Positions 772 through 4,204 of a stretch of 11,506 nt of DNA are shown here, piece by piece. A program made the position numbers and the translations under genes. Below the pieces are notes generated by a model. The model saw nothing but the letters and a program-made list of their open reading frames with translations. It did not search any database and was not told where the DNA came from. Source of the DNA: Promethearchaeia archaeon (lineage in GTDB: Archaea > Asgardarchaeota > Lokiarchaeia > Sigyniarchaeales > SOKP01); assembly GCA_046497275.1 (NCBI GenBank), contig JAWOFX010000040.1, positions 1-11,506 on the forward strand, given 5' to 3'. Every line of letters begins with the position of its first letter. Within the stretch, counting starts at the first letter, position 1.

Positions 772-2232
772 TTATATTTCACCTCCAACTATATCAGGTC
801 GTCCCCGAACGGGTCGACATTTCCAATAATAATTAATAAAGTCCGCACCTTCATGTTCCTTTCTAAAGGTTAGCTCAACTTTCATACCTATCTCAACATT
901 CTTTTCGGGATTTTCAATTTCTGTCATATTCATTAACACTCTTCCTCCCCCTTCTAAATCAATTACACACCGAGGGACAGGAGTGTCATAATAATTTCCA
1001 CCTACAAGATGATCAAGAGTAAAAGTAAAAATCTCACCCTTATATGAAAGCTTAATTTTCTCTAATTGACCATCTGTTTGACAGACATAACATGATTTAT
1101 GGTTTACTGGATATTGAATTGCTCCACAATTTTTACATTTTAATCCATAATTTCTATATACAGAATCTGCATCCCGCCATATAGTGACTGCTGAGCTTTT
1201 TCTTGTGTATCTATCCTTTTCTAATAACTCTTTATTATCTAAGAATCTATTATAATTTTTTACCTGTTCCATAGATTTCTGATGACCGTTCAAACCAAGT
1301 CTTGTTTTACCAAGATCTCTTACAGCTTTTCTGTCTCTCACTTTCATTAAAATAGCGTCAGCTCCATCTCCATATCCTACCATCAAAATATTGGCATCTT
1401 CTTCTGGTCGTCTTAAGGCTCCGATCAATAACATCATAGGCATTGGAGTACCAGTATCACCAATTTGGAAGAACATTCCATTTTGAGCAACCCCTCGTTC
1501 AAATTCCATTCTCTTCGAGATACCCGCATGCATTTTAGGATTATTATAATAGTAGGCGGCATGATGAATTTCTTTAGGACTTAAATTATTTTTTTCCAAG
1601 ATTTTATTCATAACGGTTAGAAGACTCTGCATATAAAATTTAGAATCCATTTTAACCTCAAACGTCCGAATAAATTCATCTTTCTCTCTCCTTTTCCAAG
1701 GTCCAATGATATTTTTAGCAATAGAATATGTATCTTCAATAGATATTGGGATATTTTCATCATTTGCAATTAAAAGAGCGCCCGCACCATCAGCAAATCC
1801 ATATTCCCACATAGTTTGTGGTTCTGGTTCTCTTTGATCAGCAGCAAGAACTAAAATACTATTTATATCATCATTTGCTTTAATCGTCTCATAAGCTCGT
1901 GCAACAGCCGTTGTTCCTGCTTTAAGTGAATCTGTAAAATCTGCAGTAACAATATCATCACGCAAATCTAAAACTGCTGAAATAATCGAAGCAGAATCCT
2001 TCTCAGTGTATACTTGCGTTGTAGTTGCATAATATAACCCATCAACTGATTTGGGATCAAAACCAGCAAGACAGTCAAGTCCGGCTTCCACTGCCATAGT
2101 CAAACTGTCCTCATCTGCTAAAGCGAATGCTTTAGTCCCTGGTACGACCGGAAAATCCCATGCATTAGCAATAGCTTTTCGAGGCAAAAGATAGCGAGGT
2201 AAATAGGCTCCATATGATTTTATTCCAATCAT
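772..2232 (-). CDS. HMG-CoA synthase/KAS III-fold domain (predicted non-catalytic) fused to a C-terminal DUF35 (Zn ribbon + OB fold) acyl-CoA-binding domain, 486 aa
   Basis: The N-terminus follows the HMGCS pattern (MIGIKSYGAYLPRY, DEDSLTMAVEA, KAGT, GDGA, GYGDGADA). The C-terminus has C366xxC369...C381xxC384 followed by GEIFTFT...VIDLEGGGRV...VEIGMKVELTFRK...YYWKCRP, typical of DUF35. Confidence 0.85.
   Translation of the reverse strand: MIGIKSYGAYLPRYLLPRKAIANAWDFPVVPGTKAFALADEDSLTMAVEAGLDCLAGFDPKSVDGLYYATTTQVYTEKDSASIISAVLDLRDDIVTADFTDSLKAGTTAVARAYETIKANDDINSILVLAADQREPEPQTMWEYGFADGAGALLIANDENIPISIEDTYSIAKNIIGPWKRREKDEFIRTFEVKMDSKFYMQSLLTVMNKILEKNNLSPKEIHHAAYYYNNPKMHAGISKRMEFERGVAQNGMFFQIGDTGTPMPMMLLIGALRRPEEDANILMVGYGDGADAILMKVRDRKAVRDLGKTRLGLNGHQKSMEQVKNYNRFLDNKELLEKDRYTRKSSAVTIWRDADSVYRNYGLKCKNCGAIQYPVNHKSCYVCQTDGQLEKIKLSYKGEIFTFTLDHLVGGNYYDTPVPRCVIDLEGGGRVLMNMTEIENPEKNVEIGMKVELTFRKEHEGADFINYYWKCRPVRGRPDIVGGEI
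779..786 (-). promoter_or_regulatory. Shine-Dalgarno site (GGAGGTGA) for the thiolase, embedded in the last codons of the upstream gene
   Basis: The minus strand reads GGAGGTGA-AATATAAA-ATG. The site is 8 nt before the thiolase ATG; the upstream TAA and the ATG are separated by 1 nt. Confidence 0.7.
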
Positions 2233-2365: not shown

Positions 2366-3253
2366 TTACATTTTACAACTTCTTATTTCTTCGGCGAATG
2401 ATATTTGTATTGTAGATTCCGTAATGTTATATTTGTGGTGTACATAATCTATAACATGTTGGAGAAGCTCATCTTGATTAACATCTCTTTTTATTTGAAT
2501 GTGTGTTGTAAGAACTAATATCGCCGGAGTTATTGTCCATAAATGAGTATGATTCACTTGCAAGATATCTTCAAAATTTTTTTCCAAATCTTCCTCAATT
2601 ATCTCCACATTCAAATCACTGGGGGCCATCTCAAGTAAAATTCTCCCAGAATCTCGTAAAATATTTACAGCCCAAGATATAATAAGCCCAGCAATAAGAA
2701 AACTGATCAATGGATCAAGAAATGAAAATTGGGTGAAATAAATGATTATAGCAGCAATTACAACCCCGACTGAAGAAATGGCATCTCCAATCATATGATA
2801 AAATACTCCTTTAATGTTTAGATCTTCCTTAGGACTTCCCTGTAAAATCAATATGCTCGTAATATTAACAGCAAGACCAATTAATGCGACAAAAATCATA
2901 TATATTATATCTATTTCAACAGGGTTCAGTAAACGTTCTATTGCTTCAAAAAGAATAAAGGCCACCATAACTAACAAAAATAATCCATTTATAAAAGCTG
3001 CAAGGATTTCGGCTCTATATAGCCCAAAAGTCCTATGGTGACAAGTAGGTTTTTGTGCTAAATAAATCGCAAATAAACTAATACTAATAGCAAAAGCGTG
3101 AGTAAACATATGTCCTGCATCAGTTATGAGTGCTATGCTATTAGCTATTAATCCCCCCAAAAGTTCGATAATTAATACACTAACAGTAATTACCAATGAA
3201 ATAATTAACCGTTTTTTTTCTACTTCTCTATATTCGAAAATCCTATCTTTCAT
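2366..3253 (-). CDS. Cation diffusion facilitator (CDF) divalent metal exporter, CzcD/ZitB-like overall, 295 aa
   Basis: Six hydrophobic segments, SxALxxDAGH in TM2, TFGLYRAEILAAFING, HMIGD in TM5, DP motif in TM6, and a C-terminal domain with HTHLW...HIQI...STIQ. Confidence 0.93.
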   Translation of the reverse strand: MKDRIFEYREVEKKRLIISLVITVSVLIIELLGGLIANSIALITDAGHMFTHAFAISISLFAIYLAQKPTCHHRTFGLYRAEILAAFINGLFLLVMVAFILFEAIERLLNPVEIDIIYMIFVALIGLAVNITSILILQGSPKEDLNIKGVFYHMIGDAISSVGVVIAAIIIYFTQFSFLDPLISFLIAGLIISWAVNILRDSGRILLEMAPSDLNVEIIEEDLEKNFEDILQVNHTHLWTITPAILVLTTHIQIKRDVNQDELLQHVIDYVHHKYNITESTIQISFAEEIRSCKM

Positions 3254-3333
3254 ATGTGCATGATTTTTTGATGTAATTTAAAACCACCAATACCTGTTCT
3301 GCTAATTAATGGAGAGCGATCAGATTTTTAATT

Positions 3334-3347
3334 ATTATTATAATAAT
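3334..3347. promoter_or_regulatory. Palindromic TATA-like element ATTATTATAATAAT (possible bidirectional promoter for the CDF gene and the adjacent structured element)
   Basis: Perfect 14-bp palindrome containing TTATAAT on both strands. The same heptamer lies 22-25 nt before the ATGs at 5025 and 11386. It is AT-only, so weak evidence. Confidence 0.35.
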
Positions 3348-3378
3348 TCATAAAATTAGTTAGTTATTTTGAAAGAGT

Positions 3379-3505
3379 GGCTCCTGTTCGGTTTAATAGG
3401 CGTCAAAAAGGAAAAAAGACACCAAAATAAAAGAATAAGGAGAAGAAAGTGTGCGTTTAGCAACACTAACCAAAAGACAAAAATCCAGGGAACCTTACAG
3501 GAGCC
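3379..3505. ncRNA. Candidate structured RNA (alternative: MITE with 15-bp imperfect TIRs)
   Basis: 51/127 nt are G+C (40%) in very AT-rich flanks. The ends GGCTCCTGT-TC-GGTT (3379-3393) and AACC-TT-ACAGGAGCC (3491-3505) are complementary at 13/15 positions. Internal hairpins at 3399-3423 (GGCGTC/GACACC) and 3450-3467 (GTGTGC-GTTTA-GCAACAC). No Rfam family recognised. Confidence 0.45.
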
Positions 3506-3529
3506 TTATTTTTTATTTTTTCCTTTTTT
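3506..3529 (+). terminator. U-tract terminator-like run directly after the structured element
   Basis: TTATTTTTTATTTTTTCCTTTTTT (three T6 runs) begins at the first base after the terminal stem. Confidence 0.35.
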
Positions 3530-3925
3530 GTCCAAATTTTTTATTTATAAGATTTAATGGTAATTTTTTGTATAAAATCTTTATTATTATTAGATAAGCA
3601 AGCATACCAAAATTTTTAAACCTCTCTCTTATCAAATATTAAACAACTCATTTCAAAATTTAGCAAATTCAATTTTTATAATAATATGCAAATTTATAAT
3701 CGATATTCTTATCTTCTCTTATTTCAAAAGGGAATGTTTCGAGGTTCAATATTTCTTATTTTTTTGGTCTATATTTGGAATAAATACTTCAAAATTGTAA
3801 AAATAAATAAATCATATTTGTAATATTTTAACTAATAAAAGTATGTTTTAGTGTAAAAAATTCAAATTTTTAAAAGCTAAAAATATCAATTTATTAGAAT
3901 ATTATATTCATGAGAAGAGATAAAA

Positions 3926-4204
3926 ATGAATTATTGTCCGGAATGTGGATCAAAGATAGAAGCCAATTCTAGTGTTTGTAGATATTGCGGGTTTGTATTA
4001 AAAAAATCTGAAGCTCCAAATGAAAAAGATAAAAGAATAGAGGAATTGGAAAAGAAAATTGCTCTCTTAGAAAAAAATAAGACATCAACAAAATCTTTAG
4101 GTGATAATGAAAATTCTCCATGGATATTCATTATGCCAATTGCGGTGGTAGCAATTTTTTTCCTTTTTATCTTCTTGATAGTATTTGTCGCTACCAGCAG
4201 ATAA
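3926..4204 (+). CDS. Zinc-ribbon protein with short coiled coil and C-terminal transmembrane anchor, 92 aa
   Basis: CPECG...CRYCG at the N-terminus, heptad-like EKDKRIEELEKKIALLEKNK, and a hydrophobic WIFIMPIAVVAIFFLFIFLIVFVA segment followed by only TSR. Confidence 0.8.
   Translation: MNYCPECGSKIEANSSVCRYCGFVLKKSEAPNEKDKRIEELEKKIALLEKNKTSTKSLGDNENSPWIFIMPIAVVAIFFLFIFLIVFVATSR

Follow-up and report, generated by a model that had tools for sequence, protein, structure and literature searches.

The 11.5-kb window analysed here, that is, the whole stretch of DNA presented above (contig C137 in our numbering), belongs to a genome of 3.85 Mb in 188 contigs with a GC content of 30.4%. Between a gene for a cation-efflux (CDF) protein on the minus strand (2366-3253) and a small zinc-ribbon open reading frame (ORF) on the plus strand (3926-4204), it contains an intergenic element that very probably is a real, stand-alone RNA gene, read from the minus strand. 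We place this structured small RNA gene at 3370-3514; the boundaries are approximate and derive from the conserved block. With 36-49% GC, as compared to 30% for the genome, the element is a GC-enriched island.

A preliminary description, made from the letters of the DNA alone, had proposed that a closing stem encloses two hairpins at this place. The stem and both hairpins were found at the positions given for them, and all are recovered in the minimum-free-energy folds of both strands. In the plus-strand sequence, GGCTCCTGT (3379-3387) pairs with ACAGGAGCC (3497-3505), and GGTT (3390-3393) pairs with AACC (3491-3494) across a 2x2 internal loop. The folding control that had been suggested was run with 200 dinucleotide shuffles and came out in favour of both strands: z = -2.79 for the plus strand, with 1 of the 200 shuffled sequences folding as well, and z = -3.57 for the minus strand, where none did. 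A second AACC that could pair with the same GGTT does exist (3469-3472), but the alternative fold that it would allow has no support in the RNA family described below; this pairing escapes a test by variation because 3469-3472 sits in an invariant core.

The consensus sequences of known riboswitches, metal-sensing or other, had been reported as absent from the element, and the covariance-model scan agrees: the Rfam 15 models at gathering thresholds, among them those for NiCo (czcD), yybP-ykoY, fluoride, cobalamin, tRNA, 5S, Y RNA, snRNAs and Hgc RNAs, gave no match in the whole window. Allowing E-values of up to 10 over 3200-3950, the sole match was a 21-bit small nucleolar RNA, which is noise, and ARAGORN identified no tRNA or transfer-messenger RNA gene over 3200-3700. 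The archaeal signal recognition particle RNA model was matched full-length in the genome.

An RNA family with covarying helices

Searching the genome with the element identified two more loci, in contigs C60 and C25, with an exact shared stretch of 23-28 nt; a full-length repeat of the element was not found elsewhere in the genome. The two loci have the same architecture and other closing stems, GGCTCTCAG/CTGAGAGCC and CCTTGCT/AGCAAGG, respectively, as compared to GGCTCCTGT/ACAGGAGCC in the window. We extracted about 100 distinct copies, aligned 52 of them, built a covariance model (R1) and realigned its 103 matches, all in the plus orientation. In the genome under study, R1 detects exactly three copies: C60 (103.5 bits), the window (78.3 bits) and C25 (38.3 bits). 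Several ancient paralogue classes of the RNA have been kept across genera.

Double changes occur at all 20 pairs of the plus-orientation alignment, and 93.2% of its cells are paired, as against 24-47% in a control in which the pairing partners were slid by one to three columns. The observed covariation was reached in none of 500 shuffles, although the slid controls are the fairer comparison, the alignments having been fitted to the model. To exclude an artefact of the model, alignment and model were rebuilt on the minus orientation (R2), with the same outcome: double changes at 21 of 21 pairs and 93.8% of the cells paired (31-55% when slid). The window copy matches R2 over model positions 1-143 of 143 (3367-3517, minus strand, 90.2 bits) and R1 at C137:3373-3511 (78.3 bits), in both cases partly by construction, as it is included in the seed alignments; the C25 copy, absent from the seeds, is an independent match of 38-39 bits. 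Since three helices covary in some 100 related copies, the element is structured far beyond chance.

Read 5' to 3' on the minus strand, the canonical RNA starts with AANNAU, followed by the 5' strand of the closing helix P1 (GACUCCUGCC and a variable extension), CACC-CUGGAUUUUUGUCUUUUGG-U and the P3 hairpin, after which come CUGAUUUCGCCCUCCUCCCCCUAUUUUAUUUU, the P2 hairpin, a short linker, the 3' strand of P1 and WCCYUUU. The window copy carries every element of this order. Its A-rich 5' flank AAAAAAUAA (3506-3514) corresponds to the AANNAU of the family consensus directly before P1, in which A occurs at -6, -5 and -2 in 77-91% of the copies. In the outer part of P1, for which sequence, folds and covariation concur, the 5' strand GGCUCCUGU (3497-3505) pairs with the 3' strand ACAGGAGCC (3379-3387); double changes are found at every pair across the family, and in G132, a genome of the same genus, GGCUCC/GGAGCC is replaced by the compensatory GGUCCC/GGGACC. 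The inner part of P1, GGUU (3491-3494) with AACC (3390-3393), evident from the sequence and the minus-strand fold, is kept in orthologues of the same genus and is variable across the family.

Between P1 and P3 lies the invariant 19-nt core CUGGAUUUUUGUCUUUUGG (3470-3488), without variation in the alignments of both orientations, which includes an AU5G tract and is probably single-stranded. A small hairpin inside the core (GGAU/GUCU and ACC/GGU), suggested by RNAalifold, is not supported: its columns are invariant within the family and the hairpin is not kept in the sister family, which argues that the AU5G tract is probably unpaired. The P3 hairpin (3448-3467) appears in the minus-strand fold and covaries, with double changes in all of its six pairs and 96% of the cells paired. 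It is followed by the C/U-rich joiner CUUUCUUCUCCUUAUUCUUUUAUUUU (3424-3447), unpaired in the family alignments, in which no covarying partner was found for it; the canonical form of the family, CUGAUUUCGCCCUCCUCCCCCUAUUUUAUUUU, is shortened to CUUCUCCUUAU in the window copy. Some copies (L138, L148 and L103) have an extra hairpin inside this joiner, and in two genomes of the sister family (G284 and G332) a hairpin at the same place replaces or accompanies the C/U tract; the joiner therefore tolerates, or ancestrally was, a fourth helix. The P2 hairpin (3399-3423), GGUGUC...GACGCC with one G.U pair, is likewise backed by the minus-strand fold and by covariation: its four core pairs are 98% paired in the family, and the U.G pair of the window copy is C-G in G130, a genome of the same genus. 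The C25 copy belongs to a conserved paralogue class that is devoid of P2.

The 3' tail ACUCUUUC (3371-3378) was identified from the flank profiles and corresponds to the family consensus WCCYUUU. Conservation with G130 ends just past it, and it may be an oligo-U termination site. On the other side, the TTATAAA at 3550-3544 on the minus strand that had been pointed out in the preliminary description is present, about 40 nt upstream of P1, and is a candidate archaeal TATA box judging by sequence only; across the family, no positional TATA signal emerged from the AT-rich DNA on either strand.

Two further observations concern the joiners and P1. Roughly 15-37 nt before the RNA, some 25 of 89 loci (e.g., L052, L058, L080, L111, L075 and L028; not clearly the window) have the motif AAAUAAAAUAGGG, exactly complementary to their own joiner CCCUAUUUUAUUU, with locus-specific matching variants (UAAUAUAGGG/CCCUAUAUUA and AAAAUAGGA/UCCUAUUUU). 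A pseudoknot arm and a promoter element are both conceivable, as is a chance occurrence in AT-rich DNA; the test is selection-biased, and 10-mers consisting of A and T only match by chance in such DNA. A switch in which the 5' strand of P1 pairs with the purine-pyrimidine box was considered and rejected: selected examples resembled covariation, but the 22 distinct P1 classes scored 12.4 with self and 11.8 across classes (permutation p = 0.12).

Coding strand and presence in RNA libraries

A single transition in a Watson-Crick pair yields either G.U or A.C, and selection at the RNA level retains the former and purges the latter. Aligned in the plus orientation, the helices show 71 A.C or C.A mismatches and 27 G.U pairs over all positions, and 54 A.C and 12 G.U at the interior ones; in the minus-oriented alignment, there are 64 G.U and 8 A.C at the interior positions. 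The excess of A.C on the plus strand means that the wobble pairs belong to a minus-strand RNA, and the alignments thus indicate that the RNA is read from the minus strand of the window, under strand-specific selection. The earlier remark that mismatches of the plus strand become G-U pairs on the minus strand is borne out by these family-wide counts and by the G.U pair in P2, which is C-G in G130. The minus strand is also the more stable by minimum free energy in 92 of 99 copies, a comparison that we do not count, since U/G-rich strands generally fold better.

These counts bear directly on the first interpretation offered for the element, a stand-alone small RNA transcribed from the plus strand, with TTATAAT (3338-3344) as its promoter and a triple T6 tract as its terminator. 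TTATAAT and the T6 runs past 3509 are there as claimed, many copies have T-rich runs after the closing stem and a conserved AAAGGNG before it, and the plus-strand fold also outperforms its shuffles. Runs of T and A, however, flank both sides of the element in a 30% GC genome and are poor discriminators; the wobble counts oppose a plus-strand RNA whichever orientation the model was built in, as does read 1 on the plus strand in two RNA studies (see below). The stand-alone character of the RNA is thus upheld, on the strand opposite to the one proposed, and a plus-strand gene is very unlikely.

In the RNA libraries, the element is present as a short discrete piece. Metatranscriptome contigs from two studies cover 3384-3492 and 3388-3477 without mismatch. 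Their k-mer depths were 39.9 and 6.5, as compared to 11.4 and 3.05 for the CDF contigs of the same runs, with the reservation that contigs give neither transcript levels nor transcript ends. Illumina adapters border both short contigs, and in each the read-1 adapter lies at the low-coordinate end. Read 1 is antisense to the RNA in most stranded libraries; by this usual convention, the adapter position points to the minus strand. No RNA contig covers 3565-3666. In run X5, the contig is exact up to position 3492 and then has seven differing letters (ACGAATG) before the adapter, which could stem from another strain or paralogue joined in the assembly or be a library artefact.

Genomic neighbourhood and distribution

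On the RNA strand, some 117 nt separate the end of the element from the start codon of the CDF gene (3253), which lies downstream. The arrangement is kept in G130, where the RNA is also found upstream of a CDF gene. The RNA block is 93% identical between the two genomes, as against 81% for the start of the CDF coding sequence, 66% for the upstream flank of the RNA and 56%, with a 42-nt indel, for the spacer to the CDF gene. In the same genus, G133 encodes a CDF homologue, but the locus retrieved around it does not include the RNA; in G132, the orthologue of the RNA is situated at another place. For 85 copies, the flanking sequence was long enough to assess the downstream neighbour: it has the same orientation as the RNA in 60 of them, of which one syntenic locus accounts for about 33, and is convergent in 23, in 15 cases at 31-140 nt. 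The downstream genes are unrelated: they encode a radical S-adenosylmethionine (SAM) enzyme, a DEAD-box helicase and a Roadblock protein, and many are without a Pfam match. The consistent co-oriented position before related genes that characterises a riboswitch was not found. Four copies were found in the sister family, and all three that were examined face a convergent gene.

Orthologous copies are syntenic across genera. The main orthologue group (the C60 locus, L002 = G000:C60, with 33-39 related loci) occupies a conserved divergent intergenic region, with a gene on one side that encodes a small membrane protein (about 131 amino acids, no Pfam match) and, about 190-310 nt downstream of the RNA on the other, a co-oriented radical SAM gene with an HMPTM-type zinc ribbon. 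Elsewhere in the window, an ORF of 486 amino acids at 772-2232 (minus strand) combines a weak ketoacyl-synthase III-type N-terminus with a C-terminal ChsH2/DUF35-type OB fold, as if components that normally occur separately in the archaeal HMG-CoA synthase/thiolase/DUF35 complex had been fused.

Two other interpretations of the element can be weighed against this background. As a miniature inverted-repeat transposable element (MITE) or another mobile DNA with terminal inverted repeats, it would be expected in several dispersed copies with inverted terminal arms, which is what we observe; several copies, moreover, are located at contig ends in draft assemblies. The arms are nonetheless the part that varies: they differ between the three genome copies (GGCTCCTGT, GGCTCTCAG and CCTTGCT), which have only the 23-28-nt core in common, and they covary while the interior stays constant, the opposite of a MITE. 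This reading fails on that pattern and on the synteny of the orthologous copies; the genome holds no full-length repeat, the strand-asymmetric wobble pattern suggests selection on a transcript, and the flanks GAAAGAGT and TTATTTTT show, as had been noted before, no target-site duplication. We regard mobile DNA as an extremely improbable explanation. A cis-acting 5' leader of the CDF metal exporter, a riboswitch or attenuator on the minus strand that senses a metal or another ligand, would have the correct strand, the short distance to the CDF start codon and the conserved arrangement in G130 in its favour. One RNA-library contig (2806-3526) spans the element and the 5' region of the CDF gene, stems that vary and covary round a conserved junction are reminiscent of a riboswitch, and in the largest orthologue group the RNA precedes the radical SAM gene in the same orientation. 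On the other side, even genomes of the same genus (G133 and G132) do not keep the RNA next to the CDF gene, the downstream genes are functionally unrelated across copies, the next gene is convergent in 23 of 85 copies, the sister-family copies examined stand alone, the spacer is poorly conserved, and neither the NiCo and yybP-ykoY riboswitches nor any other in Rfam matches. The metal-sensing CDF leader put forward in the preliminary description is, in our judgement, most unlikely to be what the element encodes.

The family comprises roughly 500 copies. Of 135 genomes from the same GTDB family, 127 matched a 21-nt core pattern, allowing up to three mismatches, in 1-17 copies each; the reversed control pattern gave practically no matches (~0) in the same genomes. 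A pattern scan of a phylum sample of 301 genomes identified the core in 89 of the 91 genomes of the window's family and, outside it, two-mismatch matches at the level of the control and one exact match on a small contig. Public records with the same core are almost all assigned to Promethearchaeota (Loki-type Asgard archaea). In the sister family, four of five genomes have single diverged copies (26-43 bits with the minus-strand model) that keep P1, P3, P2, AUUUUGUCUUUUUGG and UGAUUUC(G/A)CC; two of these copies lie in genomes that are closed to one contig (G284:C1:1198521-1198666 and G341:C1:1882141-1882281). Five near-complete genomes (95-100%) of other families gave no match with the less sensitive first model, the only one applied to them. 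Within Lokiarchaeia, the range of the family therefore spans at least an order. A wider spread through the Asgard archaea and into bacteria (Hermod-, Hod-, Thor- and Odinarchaeota; Clostridia, Saccharibacteria and Patescibacteria bins) was considered and rejected, as the phylum scan finds the core in one family; record labels outside that family probably reflect labelling or binning. Three metagenome-assembled genomes labelled Clostridia, Saccharibacteria and Patescibacteria (L070, L099 and L128) have the exact 19-nt core, and L128 has two full model matches; these are most likely misbinned Lokiarchaeal contigs.

Possible modes of action and related RNAs

The fold, its conservation, the coding strand, the presence in RNA libraries and the independence from neighbouring genes are directly supported. 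Taken as a whole, the explanation that we favour, with rather more confidence than doubt, is that the window at 3370-3514 (minus strand) encodes, as a gene of its own, a structured non-coding RNA about 125-145 nt long that acts in trans. That it acts in trans rather than on a neighbouring gene is probable. In this RNA, the long closing helix P1 encloses a junction with the two variable hairpins P3 and P2, and with two long, conserved and apparently unpaired joiners, the invariant U-rich CUGGAUUUUUGUCUUUUGG and the C/U-rich strand. It would function as a stable RNA-protein particle or as a riboregulator. The most economical reading of the joiners is that they are protein-binding or tertiary-contact surfaces, since no covarying partner and no antisense target of the core were found: a G.U-tolerant search of the genome for targets of the core as an antisense guide yielded five full-length targets, three of them the opposite strands of the RNA genes themselves, as against three for the control, and 12-mer seeds of the core were not enriched in the genome.

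Two more specific proposals can be made for the joiners. One is that Sm/Lsm rings bind the invariant AU5G tract between two helices, a tentative suggestion that we would not rate as likely. The consensus of an Sm site is RAU4-6GR; in GGAUUUUUGUC, between P1 and P3, the AU5G and the purine 5' of it fit that consensus, the 3' position being a U, and the counterpart of the tract in the sister family is UAUUUUGUC. In the genome, four LSM-domain matches exceed the Pfam cut-off (76, 61, 57 and 28 bits; L180-L183), located at C113:8322-8516, C85:6473-6688, C125:3020-3217 and C102:26133-26264, the fourth being partial (profile positions 2-45). Single-stranded U-rich RNA is the known ligand of archaeal Sm rings, and according to a 2013 review, whose authors knew of no such case, archaeal genomes with at least four Sm genes had not come to light (PMC3710371). 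The other proposal, doubtful at present, is that the C/U-rich joiner, CCUCC-like in most copies, pairs with purine-rich, Shine-Dalgarno-like sequences. In this genome, motifs of the GGAGG/GGTGA type are enriched about 9-19 nt before start codons, in about one tenth of the genes.

A number of points weigh against the trans-acting RNA and its proposed contacts. The Sm-site match is partial (U in place of the 3' purine), and ATTTTTG-like strings are common in DNA of 30% GC; the CCUCC-like tract, absent from some copies of the sister family, is not conserved across the order. The adapter argument for the strand holds only to the extent that these libraries follow the usual convention. The RNA-library contigs are unable to show transcript ends, a promoter or a terminator, and one of them, the 2806-3526 contig mentioned above, continues from the element into that of the metal exporter. 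A recurrent protein-gene partner of the RNA was not found across its copies, only one paralogue having a syntenic neighbourhood; one third of the sampled copies lie at that one locus, upstream of the radical SAM gene, and this paralogue could act in cis.

A non-regulatory role is a serious alternative, although we consider it unlikely: the RNA could be a housekeeping particle RNA, the scaffold or catalytic RNA of a lineage-specific RNA-protein complex. Its core is near-universal and invariant across the family, ancient paralogue classes have persisted across genera, its conservation exceeds that of neighbouring coding sequence (93% and 81%, respectively, in the comparison with G130), and its long conserved joiners are without a detectable antisense target (five, against three for the control). 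No linked protein gene and no similarity to a known particle RNA were found, however; a copy number varying between 1 and 17 is unusual for an essential scaffold, and the sister family holds only weakly similar single copies. A bolder version of the Sm proposal, which we hold to be improbable, is that the family constitutes the RNA of an archaeal Sm-ring particle, in which Sm-like proteins would encircle the AU5G tract, as in the eukaryotic Sm-class small nuclear ribonucleoproteins (snRNPs), and the other conserved strand and the variable helices would engage RNA targets.

Among known RNAs, the trans-acting RNA that we propose resembles in its setting the GC-rich small RNA genes of AT-rich archaea, HgcC, HgcE, HgcF and HgcG, reportedly described by Klein, Misulovin and Eddy in 2002: like these, it is a stand-alone, structured RNA of unknown function in a GC-enriched intergenic island of an AT-rich archaeon, but it occurs in another lineage and in multiple copies with an invariant U-rich core, and the Rfam scan gave no match to any of them in sequence or structure. 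With Sm-class small nuclear RNAs (snRNAs) and Hfq/Lsm-dependent small RNAs, it shares a probably single-stranded AU5G between helices, stem-closed ends, a short U-rich 3' tail and paralogues with a constant core resembling a protein site, in a genome that encodes LSM-domain proteins. It differs from Sm-class snRNAs in meeting RAU4-6GR only in part (3' U) and in lacking homology to the Rfam snRNAs, and the order of its elements is not that of U1, U2, U4, U5 or U7; archaea are not known to have a spliceosome. Riboswitch aptamers (purine, TPP, NiCo) also have variable, covarying helices round a conserved junction and several copies per genome; unlike them, the RNA is not consistently upstream of genes, serves no coherent gene set, stands alone in the sister family, has no evident expression platform and matches no Rfam class. 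Y and vault RNAs are similar in size (about 100-140 nt), in the long stem formed by the ends, in having multiple paralogues and in the U-rich 3' end; here, it is the interior and not the stem that is conserved, and there is no Rfam match. Identity with Y RNA was ruled against by the missing TROVE gene: TROVE/Ro60 (PF05731) had no match in the genome, which is 98.9% complete, while control genomes do match.

A stand-alone, structured small RNA is a familiar kind of gene, but this RNA family and its fold are new: none of the 4227 families of Rfam matches, and keyword searches of the open-access literature turned up no description of it. No known organisms are more closely related to eukaryotes than the Asgard archaea, yet their non-coding RNAs are barely known. 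The family thus offers a testable entry into RNA-based regulation or RNA-protein particles of Lokiarchaeia, and allows one to ask directly whether archaeal Sm-like proteins have dedicated RNA partners. If the Sm-ring proposal were true, the archaea most closely related to eukaryotes would possess a particle RNA that mirrors the architecture of snRNPs, either as their counterpart among prokaryotes or as an analogue of independent origin.

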